NCBI GenBank assembly: GCA_963700665.1
Contig: CAVOYK010000009.1
Location: forward strand, 52,324 to 116,323
Length of the DNA: 64,000 nt
Reading direction: 5' to 3'
Source of the DNA: an uncultured Actinomycetes bacterium
GTDB lineage: Bacteria; Actinomycetota; Coriobacteriia; Anaerosomatales; PHET01
A program made the translations under genes and the position numbers. The notes under the pieces were generated by a model. It searched no databases, was not told the origin of the DNA, and saw only the letters and a program-made list of their open reading frames with translations. Positions 1,931 through 49,385 of this stretch are shown here, one piece after another (the first letter of the stretch is position 1; the number at the start of each line of letters is the position of its first letter).

Positions 1931-4035
1931 TCACCGCACCGTCACATAACGCCAGCTGGAGTATGTCGGGAGGTGTCCGCCGTCGTCGTGATAGGCACGG
2001 ACACGCCACCTGCCCTTGTAGGGAATCGCGTAGCGTGCCTTGACCCGAGAATACGAGGAGTAGTTGTACGCGCTCGCATACCTGGTCGTGTAGTGACGCC
2101 ACTTGCCCTTGTAGTAGCGCTGGAAGTACATCTTCACGGGCTTGCCGGAGTGGCGTGGCTTCAGGTTGGCGTACCAGCTGTACGTCCGCTTGCGGTATAC
2201 CCTGCTCTTGTGCGGCCACGGCCTGCTCAGATACACCTTGGGATCGACGTAGCGGCTGACGGTCCACACGCCGTCGTAGCCCGTCGCGCCGGCGAAGAGC
2301 AGGCGGTAGTAGGTCTTGGTGTAGTTGTAGCCACTCGAGCTCGCGGGAACGGAGAACCGCACGTAGCCGTTCTCGTCCGTCTCCGCCGAGGTGACGTCGA
2401 TCCACGAGCCCGAGGTGCGCCCGGACAGTCTCTGGAGTATGACGGTCTGACCCTCCAACGGCGTGTCCCCACTCTTGAGAACACCGGAGAACGCAGCTGT
2501 GCGGCCGTAGGAAACCCGCTGGTAGCCGCTGAGGTACGAGAACCACGACGTCGCGTTCGCCACCGAGAAGTTGATCGTCTTCGTGGGTGACCAGTTCCCG
2601 TCTGCGTCCTTGACCTTGAAGGCGATGCTGTAGGGATCTTCGCGTGGTCCGAAGACTAGTTCTTTCGTCGCCGCGTTGACGGTCTGAGGTGCCCCGCCAT
2701 CCAGTCGATACTCGATGGCCGCGATGGGCTGACCGGGTCCACGTATCGGCGATGGTGAGCTGCTTCTCGGAGTGCTGGCCGTAGCCCGAACCCTGACCCA
2801 TCGGGTCCCACGCCTGGACTGCGTACGTGTAGGTGCCCGGCGCTGCGGCATCAGGCATCTCTCGGACGCTGGCTCGCTCCGACTCGCTCGTGAGCTCGGC
2901 CCATGCGCCGGTCCCGGACTTGCGCCACACGCGGTAGCTCATCGGGCGCGTATCGTCAGACGCATCCGTCGGCGAGTTGGGTGGGCGGCCCCACACGAGC
3001 TTCACCTGGCCCGAGTCCGTGCCCGAGAGGTTGACGGTGGCAGTTCCCTCGTAGTTCTCCTGGTAGTCCGCCATGGCAACCGGGATCCCGCTACCAGGAA
3101 CCAGCGACATCGAACCCGCGGGCACCGGGCCGTACTTGTAGCCAGATGACCTTCAGGTCGTCGATCGCAGGTCCTTGGCCGTTCTTGACGCCACCCGCGC
3201 CGGGGGTCATGTCGAAGAACTGGAACCACAGGGTACCCGCCTTGCGCGCGAGCTTGACGGTGTTGCCGTTGGACAGCTCGCGGGTCACGCCTTGCCACGA
3301 GCTCCCCGTGGGGAATCCGTAGACGCTCTCGTTGGTACCCGGGGCGCCCGATGCTTCCCAGTGAAGGCTGAAGATGTCGTTCGTGCCGAGGCTTGGCATC
3401 AGGTAGTAGTAGGAGAGCCACGACCGGTAGTACTCCGACAGCTGTGGCAGCTGGATGGTCGCACTGCCGCGCGTGCCAGAACTCGGCCACTTGTAGTTGA
3501 CGTAGACCGTGGCTCCGTTCGGAATCACCGTGTTCTTGCGAGCGATGGTCGTGTAGCCCTGGGCGTTCACGCGCGACCACGTAGTCCGTGTCCCTCTTGT
3601 ACTTGACGCCACCGACGGCCAGGCTCCAGACCTCTATGCTCGACACCTCGCCGCCGAAGGCCCTTGGAAGGTGAGGGCCGTGGGGTTGGTGCTGGTGAGC
3701 TTGATCGGCTCCCTCGTCTGCTGAACGTAGTCGTAGAAGGCAGGGTAGAGCGGGAAGAACGTCGAGGGGCCGAGCGTCGGGTACTGCTGCGTGCCGGCAC
3801 ACCACAGGCTGTATCCGGACGTGCCTCGACGTACGTTGGTGATCCTGCCCCAGTACGCGCGGGCAGGGCGCTCGCTGGGAATCTCGGCGAGGGCGAATCC
3901 GCCTGCATCCGAGTTGAAGTCCGCCGATACGATCGTCTGCTGCGCGGTGGGTGGATCACCTGCCCACGCGCTCGGAACGAGTGCGAGCAGAAGAGCAAGT
4001 GCGATAGCGACGATCCATGGACTTCTCGGAGGCAT
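1931..4035 (-). pseudogene. Secreted ~700-aa surface protein with FN3-like and Ig-like domains and a Tyr/Arg-rich C-terminus; at least 4 frame changes
   Basis: ATG at 4035 is preceded by AGGAGGG and followed by signal peptide MPPRSPWIVAIALALLLALVPSAWAG. Fragments 3634..4092, a short stretch of the 3002..3805 frame (FGGEVSSIEVWSLAVGGVKYKRDTDYVV), 3091..3612, 1893..3125 (VKLVWGRPPNSP...TYTYAVQAWDP) and 1931..2851 join into one protein. Confidence 0.6.
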
Positions 4036-30391: not shown

Positions 30392-30631
30392 GCGAAGTCT
30401 CCTCGGACGGTCACCGCAGCGCCGCGACGAGTCGGGCGCAGACCTGTATGTGGCGGAAGCGTCTGGAAATCGAATCCAGCCAGGAGGCTCTTCACCCCCC
30501 ACGACGGTTTTGAAGACCGCGGAGCCCACCAGGACCCATCCGCCTCCGTCGGACGATTGTGGAGAGGACGCCGGAGCGTGTCAAACACACCGCACAATTG
30601 GGCAGCTACTGCACGACGAGAGGGGTTCGAA

Positions 30632-35871: not shown

Positions 35872-37791
35872 CTACCCGGACCTCAGCACTCTGAGGTCGC
35901 CTTCTCGGCGAGTGACGCCCTGGGCGTCGAAGTACTCCAGCAACGGTATCGCGTACTTGCGGCTCACGCCGAGCACATCACGCAACTCAGCGGCGGTTGC
36001 ACCGGTGGGATGCTCCTCGAGGTAGCGAATCAGACCCGCCTTCGCGCCGTCCATCGCCGTGGCCGAGAAGTGGAGCTCGCTCGAGACCCGTACGACGGCG
36101 CCGTTGCTCACCAGTCGGCCCAAGACCTTGCGCGCGGTGCCCGCGTCGGCTCCCGCCTCGGCCGCCAACTCGGCCACACTAGCCGGAGCGAGGCCTTGGC
36201 TTTCGAGCAACGGTAGCAGTCGCGCCTCGGCCTGGGCCTCGGCCGCCAATGCACTCACTGCGGCCTTTGGATGGCGGACCCGGCCCTTCTCGGAGATCGC
36301 CACGCCGCGATCCTGGGCGACGCCGAGCACCGCGTCGAACGCCTTGGGTGAGAGACGCCGGTCGACTCGATCTCGAAGTGCCAGCGTTGCGATGCCCGTG
36401 GCCTTGGGGTCGGCCTCGTGGAACGAGACGAGCTCGGTGTCCACCTGACCGACGAGCCGGTCGAGCGCCTCGGGTGTGACGAACGCCGTCTCGCCTGCGA
36501 CCTTCACGCGCTCGAGCGTGGCCTTGTTGAGCTCGTCGGCAACCTGCGCCCTTGGCACCCCCAAAGCCGTGGCGACCTCGGCGCTGGTCATCGGCAGGCC
36601 GCGCGATGCCAGTAGCCCCACGCTTGCCGAGGACAGATCGTGTGCGAGCAGCGCATCGAGTAGTTCGCGTTCGTGCGCTCTCAAGACAGTGCGCCGAGGC
36701 GGCAGTGCGTCGAGCACGACTCCGCCACCGATGGTGTAGACCGGCGAGTAGCTCCGCACGATGAAGCGATCGTCGTACCTGGGCGCGAGCGGCTGCTCGA
36801 GCCGAACCTGGGCCAGCGCGCTAGCGCCGGGCACAAGCTTCGCGGCATCCATGAGCAGTACGCGGCCGAGCACCTCCCGCGTCCCGTGGTGGACGTGCAC
36901 GCGAGCGCCGGACTCGAACGGCCTGTCTTCGCCAGGCGTGCCGAGGTAGGTGAAGCGCGCATCGAAGCGGTCGGTGACGGTGAGCGTGCCCGGCGCGGCG
37001 ACGATGTCGCCACGGCGGATCTGGTCGCGCTCGATGCCCGTGACGTTCATGGCGACGCGCTGGCCCGCATGCGCGCGCTCCACCCCCTGCCCGTGAACCT
37101 GCACGCCTCGAACACGACCGCCCACGCGGCCCGGGTAGATCTCCACGGGATCGTCCTTGGCGGCGGACCCGGACCACATGGTGCCCGTGACCACGGTACC
37201 CGCACCGGCGATGGTGAAGACCCGGTCGACAGGCAGGCGCAGGGGGGAGTCCGCGTGTTTGCTCGGCGCATCCACGGCGACGGCGTCCAACGCCGCGAGC
37301 AGCTCGGGAAGACCGGCGCCGGTCTTGGACGACACGCCGACGATGGGCGCCCCCGCGATGGAGGTGCCCGCGAGTAGTTGCTCCACGTCCGAGCGAACGA
37401 GCGCGAGCCAGTCATCGTCGACGAGGTCGGCCTTGGTGAGCGCGACGACGCCCCGCTCGACGCCGAGCAGGTCGATGATGGCGAGATGCTCGCGCGTCTG
37501 CGGCATGACACCGTCGTCTGCCGCGATCACGAGCAGCACCACGTCGATGCCGGTCGCGCCGGCGACCATCTGACGCACGAACTTCTCGTGCCCTGGCACG
37601 TCGACCACGCCCATGGACCGGCCGCTGGGAAGCTCAAGGCGGGCGAAGCCCAGCTCGATCGTGATGCCGCGGTCCTGCTCCTCCTTCAAGCGATCCGGGT
37701 CGGTCCCGGTAAGCGCCTTGATCAAGGAGGACTTGCCGTGGTCGATGTGTCCTGCGGTACCGAGAACGAGCGAGGGCATGGGCGCACCCAA
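35872..37791 (-). CDS. selB: Selenocysteine-specific translation elongation factor SelB
   Basis: 639 aa, intact. GTPase motifs [21 protein letters not shown]. Long C-terminal winged-helix region ending [10 protein letters not shown]. Confidence 0.85.
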
Positions 37792-41946: not shown

Positions 41947-43344
41947 CTAGGGAGCGATCGCCCTGGAGAGTGCCGCAGCGACGAGCTCGTCCTCGCCTGT
42001 GACAAGCGTGCGCGGATCGAGCAGCAGACGACCGTCCTTGACTCGGGCCACGATCGCGGGCTCAGCGGCGAGTCGCAGACGCTCCTCGAGTTCGACCACG
42101 CTGACCGTGCGGGGAGCAACCGCTGCAACCGCCGTGGGAATGTCGGTGATCGGGAGAGCGCCGCCGCCGGCGCGTGCGATGTCATCGAGCACGACGACGT
42201 CTGCAGCATCGCCCACCGCCGAGCGGACCTTGTCGGCAAGGTGCTGTGCGAGCACGCGGCACTCTTCCAGCGGCATCGCCAGCATCCGCAGGGTCGGTAT
42301 CTCTCTGACGGCCTGCTCCTCGTCGAGATAGGCGCGCAGGGTGGCCTCAAGCGCCGCAAGCGTCATCTTGTCCAGCCGTAGCGCGCGGGCCATGGGGTGC
42401 TTCTTGAGGCGCTGGATCACGTCGAAGCGCCCCACCAGAATGCCCGCTTGCGGGCCCCCCAGGAGCTTGTCCCCGCTGCAGGTCACGACTGCAGCGCCCT
42501 GCGAGACGCTCTCGGCGACGGTGGGCTCGTACGGAAGTCCGTAGTGTCTGAGGTCGACAAGCACGCCAGAACCCTGGTCCTCCATCACCGGCACGCCGTG
42601 CGTAGCACCGAGCTCGGCCAGATCGCGCACTTCGACCTCGGCGGTGAAGCCGACGACTCGAAAGTTGCTCGAATGGACCTTGAGGAAGAGTCCCGTGCGC
42701 TCGGTCAGGGCCGACTCGTAGTCCGATAGGTGCGTCTTGTTCGTGGTCCCGACCTCGACCATCGTTGCTCCGGACTCGCGCATGATGTCGGGGATGCGGA
42801 ACGACCCGCCGATCTCGACGAGCTGTCCGCGACTCACTATCGCCTCTTTGTCGCGGGCGAGCGCGGCAAGCCCGATCATCACCGCTGCGGCGTTGTTGTT
42901 GACGGCCATGGCCGCCTCGGCACCGGTGAGCCGGCACAGCAGCTGTTCGCAGTGCACATGCCGGCTGCCGCGCTCGCCGCTTTCCACGTCGTACTCGAGA
43001 GTCGAGTAGTGCGTGGCAACCTCGTTGACCGCGCGCGAGGCAGCCTCGGAAAGTACGCTGCGGCCGAGATTGGTGTGCACGATGATGCCGGTGGCGTTGA
43101 CCACTCGCCTGAGAGACGGCCGCGACGCGAGGGCGGCCCTGCCAGCTGCATCTCGCGCAGCGTCTTGGGCTGAGTACTCGATCTGCTCGCCGCCGAGGAT
43201 GCGGGCCCGGGCGTCTTCGATCGCAGACCGCACGGCGTCGACCACCAAAGCGCGAGGCATACCCTCAAGCGAATCGGAGAGTTCCGGACGTGCGAGAACC
43301 TCGTCGGTCTTGGGGAGCGCCCTGAGCAGCGAGTTGGTGTCCAT
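41947..43344 (-). CDS. selA: L-seryl-tRNA(Sec) selenium transferase SelA
   Basis: 465 aa, intact: VVNATGIIVHTNLGRS...NNNAAAVM...SGDKLLGGPQAGI (PLP-Lys context). Confidence 0.85.
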   Translation of the reverse strand: MDTNSLLRALPKTDEVLARPELSDSLEGMPRALVVDAVRSAIEDARARILGGEQIEYSAQDAARDAAGRAALASRPSLRRVVNATGIIVHTNLGRSVLSEAASRAVNEVATHYSTLEYDVESGERGSRHVHCEQLLCRLTGAEAAMAVNNNAAAVMIGLAALARDKEAIVSRGQLVEIGGSFRIPDIMRESGATMVEVGTTNKTHLSDYESALTERTGLFLKVHSSNFRVVGFTAEVEVRDLAELGATHGVPVMEDQGSGVLVDLRHYGLPYEPTVAESVSQGAAVVTCSGDKLLGGPQAGILVGRFDVIQRLKKHPMARALRLDKMTLAALEATLRAYLDEEQAVREIPTLRMLAMPLEECRVLAQHLADKVRSAVGDAADVVVLDDIARAGGGALPITDIPTAVAAVAPRTVSVVELEERLRLAAEPAIVARVKDGRLLLDPRTLVTGEDELVAAALSRAIAP

Positions 43345-43415: not shown

Positions 43416-44027
43416 GTGGGACCCGTCATCATCGAGACGCAACGACTGAACCTGCGCGGATGGACCGCCGAGGACGTGCCGGCCTTCGTCGAGCTGTTCA
43501 GCCACTCGGACGTCAACCGCTTCATCAGTCGCGGAAGACCCGTCACCCCCAGCGAGGCGGCGACGTTCGTCGAGCGCTCCCAGCGCTTGCAGCACGAGCG
43601 CGGATGGTGCCGGTGGGCTATCGAGCCCAAGGAGGCCCCAGGAGAGATCGCCGGATTCTGCGGCGTCGGGTGCACCTTCGCCCCCGACGCGGAGCTCGGC
43701 TGGACCCTGAGGCGCGACCGGTGGGGACACGGGTTCGCCACCGAAGCCGCACGCGGCGCCCTTGCGTACGCGTTCGGAGTCATCGGTTTCACCGCGATGA
43801 TCTCGGCGATCGACCCTACGAACGCACGCTCACGAGCGGTCGCGGAACGCCTCGGCATGCGCGTTGTCGGCGAGATCGACTTCGAGGGCTCCGCGCTTCT
43901 GCGCTACGCCATCGACAACCCGCTGCCTGTGGGGGAATGCGATCCACGCTATCGGCGCGACTGCGAGGGAGAGACGCCGGGGAGCTCGCTCGCCCCGCCG
44001 GAAGCGCGGGGGGACACATCCGCCTAG
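43416..44027 (+). CDS. GNAT-family N-acetyltransferase (RimJ/RimL-like)
   Basis: 203 aa, intact: IETQRLNLRGWTAEDVPAF...RRDRWGHGFATEAARGALAYAF. Confidence 0.75.
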   Translation: MGPVIIETQRLNLRGWTAEDVPAFVELFSHSDVNRFISRGRPVTPSEAATFVERSQRLQHERGWCRWAIEPKEAPGEIAGFCGVGCTFAPDAELGWTLRRDRWGHGFATEAARGALAYAFGVIGFTAMISAIDPTNARSRAVAERLGMRVVGEIDFEGSALLRYAIDNPLPVGECDPRYRRDCEGETPGSSLAPPEARGDTSA

Positions 44028-44362
44028 CAGATCGTGACCACGTCGTCTGCGCTCAGAAGCCCGGCGACGCTGTCGGGCATCGTCCCTACCTCCCCGACAG
44101 CGATGCTGTCTTTGAGGTGCAGGAAGTCCAGACACGTGCCGCATGCTGTAACGACCACACCCTTCTCGGCGAGTAGTCGCAGATCGTCAAGCGAGTCGGA
44201 CCCCTCGCAAGCCAGGCGCACGCCCTCGTTCATCAGGACGATAGCCTTGGGAGTCGCGTCATTTCGCGCCAACGAGTACAGGAAGCTCTTCATCAGGATC
44301 CGCCCGAGTTCGGCGTCACCGCTGCCCAGGCGATCCGACAGGACAAGCATTCGTTTCGACAT
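44024..44362 (-). CDS. DsrE-like domain protein resembling the C-terminal domain of selenium-metabolism protein YedF
   Basis: ATG at 44362 follows GGAG. Sequence MSKRMLVLSDRLGSGDAELGRILMKSFLYSL...IVLMNEGVRLA...VTACGTCLD. It lies directly downstream of selD. Confidence 0.5.
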   Translation of the reverse strand: MSKRMLVLSDRLGSGDAELGRILMKSFLYSLARNDATPKAIVLMNEGVRLACEGSDSLDDLRLLAEKGVVVTACGTCLDFLHLKDSIAVGEVGTMPDSVAGLLSADDVVTIC

Positions 44363-44456: not shown

Positions 44457-45500
44457 TCAGGACACGGTGATCGTGCCGGCAGGACCCGCGACCGCGCGCC
44501 CCACTCGGGCCGCCAGTACCCCACGGACCTCGAGGGCCACGCGCAGCTGATCGACCGCGTCTTCGCTCACGGCCATCAGGAGTCCGCCGCTCGTCTGGGG
44601 ATCGCACAGCACCCGCATCCACAGGTCGCGCTCCGCGGGATGCCGCCACTCGACGAAGTCGTCAGCCCACGCGACGACCTCGGCCGTCCGCCCGGGAACA
44701 ACGTCGCTCTGCGCCCATTCGAGCGCCCGCTCGAAGAGCGGGACCGACCCGAGCGCCATGTGCGCCGAGCAGCCACTTGCCGTCACCATCTCGTGAAGGT
44801 GGCCGAGAAGGCCGAAACCCGTGACGTCAGTCGCCGCATGAACGCCGATCTCGACCATCGCCTCGCACGCCGCCTTGTTGAGCGCAGCCATCGACTCGAT
44901 GACCTCGCGGGCGTCGTCCTCGTCGACGAGCCCGCGCTTGAGTGCGGTGCCCCATAGCCCGGTGCCGATGGGCTTCGTGAGCACGAACGCGTCCCCGGGT
45001 AGCACTCCCGTGTTGCGAACCACCTTGTCAGGGTGAACGACGCCAAAGACCGAGAGACCGAACTTGGGCTCCTTGTCGTCGATCGTGTGCCCGCCCACCG
45101 TGACCGCACCGGCTTCCGTGACCTTCTCGGCGCCTCCCCGAACGACCTCACCGACGATGTCAGGGCCCATCGAACAGGGGAACGCAAGCATGTTGAGGGC
45201 GGTCAGCGGCGTGCCCCCCATCGCGTAGATGTCGGACAGCGCGTTGGCGGCGGTGATGCGGCCGAAGTCGTAGGGGTCGTCCACGATCGGCGTGAAGAAG
45301 TCGACGGTGAGCAGCGCCGCAGTGTCGTCGCTCAACCGGTACACGGCGGCGTCGTCGCTGGTCTCGAAGCCGAGAATGAGCGCGTCCGAGTTGCCGGGCG
45401 CGATTCGGTCGAGCACTGCCTGCAGGTCCTCCGGACCCCACTTGGCTGCTCAACCGGCCTTGCTCGACATCTGTGTGAGCTTCACGCGCTCCGCGTCCAC
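44457..45500 (-). CDS. selD: Selenide, water dikinase SelD with in-frame UGA (selenocysteine) at 45452..45450
   Basis: The track ORF 44457..45416 starts at an internal GTG. Manual upstream translation in the same frame gives (GTG 45500) VDAERVKLTQMSSKAG-U-AAKWGPEDLQAVLDRIAPG. This is the G(C/U)xxK active-site loop of SelD. SD GGGGGAGG lies 6 nt before GTG 45500. Confidence 0.8.
45425..45452 (-). promoter_or_regulatory. UGA codon plus downstream hairpin (candidate bacterial SECIS)
   Basis: Twelve nt after the UGA lies GGUCC-GGA-GGACC (45437..45425). The flanking GCA...UGC could extend the stem. Confidence 0.4.
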
Positions 45501-45534
45501 GTCGCCTCCCCCCGTGACCTGGCAAGCCTCTCCA

Positions 45535-47550
45535 TCAGTAGCCGAGCTTCAGGGCAACCGCAGCGTTGGGACCGATCGGCACACCGAAGACCTTGCCGTT
45601 CACAGCCACGGGTGTGCCTCCTCGTACGTCTGCAACGGACTTGACGCGCCGATCGGTGGACAGGGCGACGTCGAGTTTGGCCGTGGAGTGGTTGAGCAGC
45701 ACGAGCACGTCGTCTTTCTCGCCTTGGAACAAGGCGACCTCCACGGCCGGCTCGCTGCAGGCCACAGGAGCACCGCACCCCGCGCCCCGGGCGACCGCGC
45801 CGTACACCTCGCGAATCATCCTGCGAACCGGTGCGGGCGTCGCCCACGGATCTCCCTGTGCGATCGCGCGCTCGATGGGTACGGCGACATAGACAGCTCG
45901 CCCTTGACCCACCTGATCGACGGTGAGCAAGCGGGTTGCCCTCGGCGTCGGTCGCGACCACGGTCGCGGAGTGGCTCGACAGCAGTGCGTAGTTCGGGAC
46001 GTCGAGCGACACGTCGAAGCTCCCCAGATCCCCGAGAACGTCAGGCTGCGCGACGCGGCACGACAGCGTTGGCCGAGGACCCCCGTCGCCGAGGAACTCC
46101 AGGCCGAACAGATCGCGGATCGCCGGGTGGGCATCGCCTCCGCCGTAGCTGAGTAGCACCGTTCCGCCACTCTGGACGAAGGAGGCCAGCCTCTCCCACG
46201 TGTCATCAGACAGCTCGAATACGCTCGGCACGATCAGAACGAGGTAGTCAGAGAAGTCATCGGACTCGCGGATGACCGTGACCGGCACCTGCGCGCGCTT
46301 CGCGGCGACGTAGGCCGCAAGACAGGCGCGGGGATCGTAGAGCCCCGCAAGGCTCGGCAACGGACGGTAGCGCTCGTCGGGCATCACGACTGCGGATCGC
46401 TCGGCGATGAGCGAATGCGTGCTCAAGTCGATTCTCGCCGTGACCTTGATGAACGACCCGATCTCCGAGAAGGACGGCTTCACGTTGCCGCCCGAGTCCG
46501 CGAGGCCCACGAGCGACTCGAACGGGTCCGAGAAGTACGGCTCGCGTCGCTCGGTGTCCATGTCGCGCATCCGCCGGCCCATCGCGCCCGCGGCGCGATT
46601 CATGAAACCGCCCCACAGCCCCATCCGCATGGCAGTCGCCTCTTCGGCGGCCGAGTGGTCCAAGCCAAGCGTCCCGACGTCGTCGAGGAGGACGGGGCGA
46701 CCCCTGTGCGCCACCCGCAGCAGGAACGAGTCGAGGTAGGTCGACGGGCCGCTGGTCAGCGGGCCCTCGGCGGCATACGCGCGATACGCCGCAGTCTGAT
46801 GTGAGACCACGAAGTCGGACGCGTCCACGGTCTCGCGCGCATCGACGCCGGTCAGCGCGAAGAGTGCCTCCGCATCCAATCCGACGCCTATCGGTCTGAC
46901 GTCATCGACTTCGCGGATCGCATCGCGCAGAGACCTCGCTCCACTGCGCCAAGTCCTCGGCCGAGCCGAACCTCGACAGAAACGCTTCGTTGCCCAGTTG
47001 CCACGCGAAGACGCCCTTCTCTCCCGCGAGATGCGACACGACCTTGGTCACCAAGGCGGTCTCGCGCTGGATGAGGTATGAGTCCGTCCGTCGGGTCGCG
47101 CTTCGTGCCCCACGAGACATCGGTGAGCTCTGAGTGACGGTCGTCGGCGAAGAAGACCACGATCGCCTGCATCTTGCGCTCGCTGATCTGAGCGACCATC
47201 TCGGCAAGCCGATCGAGCACTTCAACGGAGTACTGCGCGACCTGTGGCTCAAGAATGCGCCAGCTGACGAAGATTCGAACGAGCGAGCAACGGGCCGACG
47301 CCAAGGCGTCCAGATCGTCGGTGAGGTCGCGCGCGTACCAGTCCTCTGGGCTCTGCGTCTCCGAGTCGAGCGGGTAGAGCGACACGCCGACCGGGAAGAG
47401 GCGGTTGCGCGAGACCCGGGGCGCCTTGGCGGGCTTCGGCGCTGACTCGGCTGGGGCCGGCTCGGAGGGCTGCTGCTCGGCGACCGGCTCGGGGGTCGGC
47501 TCCGGACGGCTCGGTCTGGATGGCCTCGGTCCGCCTTTGCGGGTGGGCAT
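45535..47550 (-). pseudogene. Glycoside hydrolase, GH42-like (TIM barrel plus trimerisation-like domain); at least 3 frame changes
   Basis: ATG at 47550 follows GGGGAGG. Sequence VGVSLYPLDSE...VRIFVSWRILEP, WQLGNEAF (candidate acid/base Glu), DYLVLIVPSVFELSDDTWERLASFVQSGGTVLLSYG. Fragments are 46888..47967, 46902..47252, 45482..46879 and 45535..46206. Confidence 0.5.
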
Positions 47551-47552
47551 CG

Positions 47553-49385
47553 CTACTGCCTCCCCTCGGCGTATGCGTCGTAGAGCCGCCAGAACAGCCC
47601 TTGGCGTCGGGTGTCGTGGTACGCGGCTCGACGGATCTCGTGGACGCGCGGGTGCGTACTCACCTTGCGTGAGCAGCGCCGCCGCGAGCCCGAAGCGCGC
47701 CCGCACCAGCGTCGGATCGAGTTCGACCGCCGCGTGGTACTCATGTCGCGCCTGGCCGTAGCGCTGCAAGCCGAGCAACGACTCAGCGAGCAGCACGTGC
47801 GGCATCGGATGCTCGGGGACCGCCCTGGCGAGCGCGCCGAAGACCCTCGCAGCGTTGCGGTTGAGTCCCGGACGCTTGGCGAAGGCAGCGCCGAGCACGT
47901 AGACCGCGGTCGGCGTCTTGGTGGACACGGAGAGAGCCCTCAGGCCCACCGCCATCGCCTCGTTCACCGAGTCCTGCTTGAGATACAGGTAGCCCGCGAG
48001 CGCGAGCGCCTCGGCGTCAGTCGGGGTTCTCGTCCAAGATCAGGCGAATCAGGTCGACAGCGCTGAAGTAGTCCTCCTCGTAGGCGAGCGAGAAGGCTGC
48101 ATCGAGGCGGCTGTTGCGGTCGGCGCGACACGTCGGCGGGATGAGGCGCCGGTACGCCGTCGTCGTAGACGCCCGCGAGCGCGAAGAAGAAGTCGTCTTG
48201 GCTCGGGTCGAGTTCGCCGGCGCGCCGGAATCCCGGCAGAGCCGTGGCCATCCCCTCCCGCTTGAAGGGCCGCGACCGCGAGGTTGTACATCGCGCGAGC
48301 CTCGTGGGGGTCGATCTCGAGCGCGCGCTTCCACGCCTCGATCGCCTCCTCGTCGAAGGCCGCGGCAGCGAATGCCTCCCCCAGCTGAACGTGAGCGGTC
48401 ACGAGGTCGGGAACGACCTCGGCCAGCTCGTGCCACACCAGTATCGACTGGTCCCACATGCCGCCGCGGCGGTCGTAGGCAAGACCGAGCGACAGGTAGG
48501 CAGGAGCGCACTCCGGATCGAGTTCGATCGCCCTGCTCGCTGCCGATATCGCCTGCTCGAAGAAGTCGCCCTCCAAGAACAGGTCGGAGAGCAACGCGTG
48601 CACGAGGGGGTCGGACTCCTCGTCGCCGAGCGCCTCGTAGCACGCCGACGACCGCCGGCGCGACCTGGCCCTGACGTGCAAGGTCCTCGGCAAGGATGAC
48701 GGCGGCGCTGCGGGCGATCACCGCGCCGCCTCCCGTGTGCTTGGCGGGGAGCCCGACGCGCGCCACCAGCTTGAGTGCGCTCTCGGCACCTCGGATGACT
48801 CCGTTGGCACCCACGCTCTTGGCCAGACCGACATCGGCCGAGAACGGCGCTCCGGCGACGAACAAGGCGAGGTCCTCTCGGCCGCTCGCGCGAAACATCT
48901 CCCGTACCCGCGACGACATCGCGCGCCGTGCCGATCGTCTGCGCGAACACGATGACGATCCGAGCACCCGTCTCCTCGGCGCGCTCGAGAAACTCGGACG
49001 GCCGCACGTCGACTCCCAGGTCGATCACCCGATGCCCGGCCTCTTTGAGCGCTCCGGCCGTGATGTCCTTGTCGATGGCGTGGAGGTCGTGGTGCATCGT
49101 GCCGACAAGAACCGTGACGCCCGAGTCTTGAGCGGTCGACGGTGCGATCACGAAGCTCGTGACCTGCTCGGCCACGACCGCCGCCTGCGTGAAGGTGTAC
49201 TCGTCTATCTCGCCGCTCGCCCACGCGCCACCGAGGATCGACATGGCAGGCGCGAAGAGCTGGTCGAACAGTCGCCGCTGCGCTACCCCGGCGGCACGCT
49301 GGCGACTCGATGACGGAGATGGCACCGTGCGGGGTCCTGACTGACGAAGGCCTGGTACAGACGCGCACGCAGCGTCATCTGCCAT
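47553..49385 (-). pseudogene. Cobalamin (B12)-binding domain protein fused to a long TPR-repeat region; at least 5 frame changes
   Basis: B12-binding_2-like LFDQLFAPAMSILGGAWASGEIDEYTFTQAAVVAEQV. Rossmann-like TVLVGTMHHDLHAIDKDITAGALKEAGHRVIDLGVDVRPSEFLERAEETGARIVIV...LFVAGAPFS. TPR units then follow, from ORFs 48049..48693, 47964..48251, 48017..48967, 46888..47967 (its N-terminal part) and 47553..47744. The start is ATG 49385 or 49378. Confidence 0.55.

Follow-up and report, generated by a model that had tools for sequence, protein, structure and literature searches.

Selenophosphate synthetase (SelD) is the second most widespread selenoprotein family of prokaryotes (PMC1794560; PMC13188914). 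In the selenocysteine (Sec) form of the enzyme, this residue belongs to a flexible loop near the N-terminus that binds selenium (Zhang et al. 2006, PMC1794560; PMC13188914), and the corresponding genes co-occur with selenoprotein FdhA (PMC1794560; PMC13188914). The Sec form has already been reported in Actinobacteria, e.g., in Rubrobacter xylanophilus (PMC1794560). The selD gene that we analyze here resembles the family as published, with a predicted Sec in the N-terminal loop and FdhA-like genes with an in-frame UGA in the same genome. Hence, it is one more case of a known kind of selenoprotein, and the kind itself is already well known. The original prediction, made from the DNA letters, had stated that Sec-containing variants of SelD exist, and the published family confirms this (PMC1794560, PMC13188914). 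Neither this gene nor the class-wide set of Coriobacteriia genes described below is named in PMC1794560 or PMC13188914.

Among the SelD proteins of known structure, that of Aquifex aeolicus (PDB 2yye and 2zod), an organism of a different phylum, belongs to the same family and provides a template for the fold. The product of selD aligns to 2yye with residues 6-320 covered (E 6.7e-67). The loop S-x-G-[U/C]-A-A-K-x-G-P-x-D-L is nearly identical in the two proteins, SKAGUAAKWGPEDL in our product resembling SSGCAAKVGPGDL in 2yye. We take the native A. aeolicus enzyme (2yye/2zod) to be a selenoprotein with Sec at this position of the loop, crystallized as a Cys mutant. The SelD of Escherichia coli (PDB 3u0o) shares with our product Lys20 and the downstream Asp-rich motifs that bind ATP, but it has Cys (GAGCGCK) where Sec is predicted here (KAGUAAK). 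Its selD therefore has neither a UGA nor a SECIS element, and is independent of its own product. For the E. coli enzyme, Cys17 and Lys20 are both indispensable.

The selD reading frame and its in-frame UGA

In the window (the whole stretch of 64,000 nucleotides that we analyzed, from an uncultured Coriobacteriia-like bacterium), selD is encoded on the minus strand, from a GTG start at 45500..45498 to a TGA stop at 44457, with a single in-frame TGA at 45452..45450 (Table 1). On this strand, the called ORF 44457..45416 can be extended upstream in its own frame as VDAERVKLTQMSSKAG-[TGA 45452..45450]-AAKWGPEDLQAVL, and GTG 45500 is the sole in-frame start codon between the upstream stop and a conserved (V/I)(K/R)LTQ motif. 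On direct reading, all the coordinates and frame statements of the original prediction were correct. Downstream of the TGA, the reading frame is unbroken over 330 codons.

The product obtained by reading through the TGA matches the SelD model TIGR00476 with 372.1 bits (cut-off 125) over positions 1-310 of the 311 of the profile, a match that spans the TGA, and the model NF002098 with 331 bits (cut-off 299). It aligns with E. coli SelD (3u0o) over about residues 4-342 (E 7.5e-70). An alignment with Sec- and Cys-containing SelD had been proposed as a check. It puts U17 on Cys17 of 3u0o and K20, three residues further, on Lys20, next to the near-identity with the A. aeolicus loop, so that the UGA does fall at the catalytic Cys/Sec site as had been claimed.

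Table 1. Features of the selD locus and of the Sec-decoding genes, in coordinates of the window.
Feature	Position	Strand	Evidence or remark
Full-length selD, selenide, water dikinase, 347 codons and stop	44457..45500	-	TIGR00476, NF002098, PDB 3u0o
In-frame UGA, predicted Sec codon (U17)	45450..45452	-	Aligned with Cys17 of E. coli SelD
Shine-Dalgarno-like GGGGGGAGG	45505..45513	-	4-nt spacer to GTG 45500
Gly16 codon GGU, directly 5' of the UGA	45453..45455	-	Synonymous site invariant, 28/28
SECIS core (candidate), stem GGGUCC/GGACCU (6 bp including G-U), apical loop GGA	45424..45438	-	MFE -8.2 kcal/mol
Predicted extended SECIS stem-loop, lower helix includes the UGA (CGGUUGAGCAGCC ... GGC..UGCUCGACCG)	45406..45456	-	RNAfold
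yedF-like gene, 112 aa, directly downstream of selD	44024..44362	-	TIGR03527 118.9 bits, positions 93-194 of 194
selA, L-seryl-tRNA(Sec) selenium transferase	41947..43344	-	TIGR00474 591.6 bits, full length
selB, Sec-specific elongation factor	35872..37791	-	TIGR00475 370.5 bits, positions 2-580 of 581
selC, tRNA-Sec, anticodon UCA	30451..30547	-	ARAGORN; Rfam RF01852 63.7 bits (gathering score 47)

Gene callers yield a shorter product, an ORF of 319 aa starting at GTG 45416, and one could regard this ORF as the real gene, with the 16 codons upstream being non-coding or encoding a leader peptide. The truncated ORF alone still clears the cut-offs of the SelD models (344 bits for TIGR00476). However, its profile match starts only at position 35, and the product lacks positions 1-34, including the loop with Sec/Cys17 and Lys20 that mutants of E. 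coli SelD identify as essential for catalysis. Moreover, the peptide encoded by the 16 upstream codons (xRLTQxSxKxG) is conserved in all the relatives of the codon-level alignment (28 loci). Orthologues that start at the internal GTG and lack the N-terminal loop, named in the original prediction as an observation that would speak against it, were not seen among these loci. Finally, a search for a second, complete selD in the source genome, a 2.45-Mb metagenome-assembled genome (MAG) that is 77% complete, found none. We therefore regard a genuine 319-aa SelD as highly improbable and retain the full-length frame.

Conservation of the UGA among relatives

A six-frame search found selD in 38 of the 40 relatives from the same order. 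The gene has an in-frame TGA in 37 of the 40, and exactly one TGA in 35; the two relatives with more than one have broken or divergent copies. At the codon level, the TGA occupies the identical codon in 28 of 28 loci, always flanked as G-[U]-A-A-K, in independently assembled genomes whose SelD proteins go down to 63% identity. At the level of the class, 120 of 151 genomes have selD, and about 104 of the 121 matches contain exactly one in-frame TGA. The 17 matches that lack it are the most distant ones (43-49% identity), except for one partial match without the N-terminus. As judged from these genomes, the Sec form of SelD is the rule in Coriobacteriia.

These counts bear on a mundane explanation of the TGA, according to which sequencing or assembly went wrong, or selD recently acquired a nonsense mutation, so that the gene is a pseudogene or truly encodes Cys. 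The source genome is a MAG with 77% completeness, and the gene upstream of selD seems split over several frames, both of which could be taken as signs of such an origin. Yet, the same codon is TGA in all 28 independently assembled relatives, about 104 matches across the class have exactly one TGA, the downstream frame remains open over its 330 codons, and the synonymous sites around the UGA are frozen (see below). The conservation of the TGA across genomes practically excludes that it stems from faulty assembly or from a nonsense mutation private to this genome, and we assign to this explanation a vanishingly small probability. The TGA is thus treated below as a genuine codon of selD.

A candidate SECIS hairpin downstream of the UGA

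The original prediction had pointed to a hairpin, GGUCC-GGA-GGACC, as a candidate SECIS element. Its sequence (45437..45425) and its distance of 12 nt from the UGA were right, but the helix has 6 bp rather than 5, as one G-U pair extends it to 45438..45424, and it has 7 bp (GGGGUCC/GGACCUC) in most relatives. To this hairpin we applied four criteria for bacterial SECIS elements taken from PMC13188914. In this model, the apical loop has 3-9 nt and the upper stem 4-16 bp, a G is found within the first two positions of the loop, the distance from the UGA to the apical loop is 16-37 nt, and the minimum free energy is -7.5 kcal/mol or lower (PMC13188914). The selD hairpin has a loop of 3 nt (GGA) on a stem of 6 bp. 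The loop opens with GG, the first G being the third base of a Pro codon CCG that is kept in 27 of 28 genes. The UGA lies 17 nt from the apical loop (GCAGCCAAGUGGGGUCC). The 17-nt core has an energy of -8.2 kcal/mol, and the 43 nt starting at the UGA one of -19.6 kcal/mol. All these values lie within the published ranges.

A known element of this type is the SECIS of E. coli fdhF. Like this element and the bacterial consensus, selD has a stem-loop at the UGA with a small loop that starts with G and a spacing of about 17 nt. In the fdhF element, the UGA is also part of a lower helix, which must unwind, and folding of the selD RNA likewise predicts a lower helix containing the UGA. There are two differences. 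The loop in selD is GGA (3 nt) instead of the GGUC-type loop of fdhF, which is the type found in the genome's own FdhA genes, and the bulged U of fdhF-type elements has no evident counterpart in the selD hairpin.

Folding energies by themselves discriminate little. RNAfold gives -41.9 kcal/mol for a 91-nt stretch of selD (z = -1.8), and the z-scores of local folds range from 0.07 to -1.8 depending on the folded length, i.e., they are barely better than those of shuffled sequences, since high-GC coding sequence folds well anyway. Searches with Rfam found no SECIS family at the gathering threshold. When E values of up to 10 were allowed for 45350..45520, the only matches were noise (MIR531, HOTTIP); Rfam apparently has no model for this candidate element.

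Frozen synonymous sites next to the UGA and in the hairpin

The upper helix has standard pairs in 96% of the cells of the alignment of 28 genomes. For the lower helix, the share of paired cells across relatives is 79.5%, with no compensatory change. More precisely, we found no compensatory (double) change anywhere in the hairpin among the 28 sequences, and shuffled alignments did as well as the observed one. The invariance of the upper helix is partly imposed by the conserved peptide WGPxDL. Since the helix is nearly invariant, covariation is uninformative, and we used a test based on synonymous sites instead. This test covers the 76 four-fold degenerate columns in which 26 or more of the 28 selD genes share the amino acid. 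The mean entropy of the third position over these columns is 1.29 bits, and only three columns are below 0.3 bits: Gly16 (GGT in 28/28), the Gly of the hairpin (GGT in 28/28), and the Pro of the hairpin (CCG in 27/28). GGT accounts for only 17% of the Gly codons in the same 28 genes.

As an outside control we used 78 selD loci from many phyla. All 19 Sec-type genes that encode G-P-x-D use GGT for this Gly and are able to form a GGUC(C)/(G)GACC stem, and they span Bacillus, other Bacillota, Chloroflexota, and Pseudomonadota. In contrast, GGT appears in just 15 of the 46 Cys-type genes that have the same GPxD peptide, and GAT and TTR are employed freely in these genes. The codon contrast between the two types implies that the constraint acts at the level of the RNA and goes together with the UGA. 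Evolutionary support for an RNA structure, beyond what the protein demands, is thus provided by the freezing of synonymous sites. This constraint, specific to Sec-type selD, and the agreement with the four published properties of bacterial elements both favor the hairpin as a SECIS element, as originally proposed.

The Gly16 codon shows a similar bias in the same outside set, with GGT in 19 of 23 Sec-type genes versus 8 of 55 Cys-type genes. The GGU before the UGA may be required as 5' codon context, or may pair within the lower helix of the SECIS element. From the comparison we derive a signature of Sec-type selD that can be reused in other searches, GGU-UGA-N12-GGUCC-GNN-GGACC.

Two Sec-type genes of the outside set, from a Nitrospirota MAG (L093) and a Dehalococcoidia MAG (L105), lack the GGUCC/GGACC core at about 3030-3090 of their loci and carry other hairpins, GGCCAAA-GGU-UUUGGCC and GGACCUC-GGC-GAGGUCC; the SECIS element of selD is therefore not uniform across phyla. 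Separately, the Cys-type SelD of Bacillales (loci between L045 and L108) retain the peptide GPADL, which the SECIS stem encodes in Sec-type genes. Conversions from Sec to Cys have been described in SelD (PMC1794560), and GPADL in these proteins may be a relic, at the protein level, of an ancestor with Sec.

Sec machinery, neighboring genes, and clients

The genes selA, selB, and that of tRNA-Sec are all found within the window (Table 1), which thereby encodes the machinery for decoding Sec. This matters for the last explanation that we considered, in which the UGA of selD is decoded in another way, either by a reassignment of UGA in the lineage, or by near-cognate read-through, independent of a SECIS element, with insertion of Trp or Cys. 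Bacteria are known to read through UGA at a low level without Sec, and such read-through could restart a SelD that is otherwise purely Sec-dependent. Against this, TGA serves as the normal terminator of selD itself and of the neighboring genes, each selD has only one in-frame TGA, and the locus combines complete Sec machinery with a constrained hairpin that conforms to the published SECIS model. We reject a reassignment of the code outright, as TGA ends selD and its neighbors, and consider decoding by any route other than Sec insertion very unlikely.

On every testable count that defines SelD and its Sec type, the gene behaves as a member, as far as its sequence can tell. The claim that selD is itself a selenoprotein gene is thus supported by the position of the UGA, the fit of the hairpin to the SECIS model, the conservation among relatives, and the Sec machinery. 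We conclude that the gene very probably encodes a selenophosphate synthetase of 347 residues in which the catalytic position 17, within the glycine-rich loop near the N-terminus, is occupied by Sec, specified by UGA 45452..45450.

The gene directly downstream of selD is related to yedF but encodes only the C-terminal DsrE-like half of YedF, without the TusA-like N-terminal domain. Such a half-size gene comes after selD in 34 of the 42 Coriobacteriia-type loci and in none of 68 loci from other phyla, and its product is a candidate selenium-delivery partner of SelD in this lineage. On the other side, the gene upstream of selD (45482-47967, minus strand) is apparently split over at least three frames (ORFs 45535-46206, 45482-46879, 46888-47967, and 46902-47252), and is either a pseudogene or affected by indel errors of the MAG.

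To locate clients of the pathway, we searched for the motif U-H-[GSAT] and found two FdhA-like genes with an in-frame UGA elsewhere in the genome, with the contexts ARI[U]HSSTVAG and ARL[U]HSSTVAG. They lie at G000:C3:122164-126123 (L113) and G000:C1:41464-44880 (L115), and the copy in L115 seems frame-broken. Their hairpins are of the type GUGGCC-GGUCU-GGCCGC, with the GGUCU loop 18 nt past the UGA, so the spacing is comparable to that in selD (18 versus 17 nt), and the loop starts with G in both. The selenouridine synthase SelU (TIGR03167) was not detected in the 77%-complete genome, which gave only fragments of 21 bits. As far as the genome is assembled, the visible consumer of selenophosphate is therefore the Sec pathway. 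A Sec-type selD is expected in an anaerobe that metabolizes formate and hydrogen.

Implications for annotation and selenium metabolism

The case of selD matters mainly for annotation. As the original prediction anticipated, gene callers annotate a SelD truncated at the N-terminus, and the public collections of NCBI and ENA hold exactly the 319-aa product, which clusters with two more 319-aa members from other contigs. The read-through protein was not found in these collections by identity look-up, a method that does not find records containing U. SelD as publicly recorded for this genome and its close relatives hence lacks the catalytic loop, and metabolic reconstructions based on such records would score an inactive or "partial" enzyme. 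In the same way, surveys of selenoproteomes would overlook SelD across a class of uncultured Actinomycetota from the subsurface and the gut. The by-products of the analysis are modest refinements, namely the class-wide prevalence of the Sec form, the SECIS core of selD shared across phyla, and the invariant GGU 5' of the UGA. The comparative data also illustrate how a SECIS element within a coding region freezes synonymous sites.

Concerning the mechanism, SelB with GTP and Sec-tRNA(Sec) would bind the apical part of the stem-loop that starts at the UGA, recognizing the core GGGUCC-GGA-GGACCU whose loop lies 17 nt downstream of the UGA. It would compete with RF2 at the ribosome and deliver Sec there, for insertion at codon 17. 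The resulting SelD would produce the selenophosphate used by SelA, and in feeding SelA it would supply selenium for its own synthesis and for that of the two FdhA-like formate dehydrogenases with a UGA. We infer all three elements of this scheme, i.e., Sec insertion, binding of SelB, and autocatalytic feedback, from the locus and its relatives.

Positive feedback on selenium through SelD is reasonable to expect, because the sole selD per genome would need its own product. Several relatives with genomes that are 99-100% complete have just one match at the level of SelD each. One may go further and speculate that the use of selenium in this order rests on an obligately self-referential loop, in which the only selD is Sec-dependent and a cell that has run out of SelD regains it only through Sec-independent decoding of UGA17; we hold this to be rather unlikely. 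Such a Sec-independent leak might be tuned by the invariant GGU-UGA context and by the predicted lower helix, in which the UGA would be sequestered. If the self-referential loop is real, it would imply hysteresis or bistability in the expression of selenoproteins and of formate dehydrogenase.
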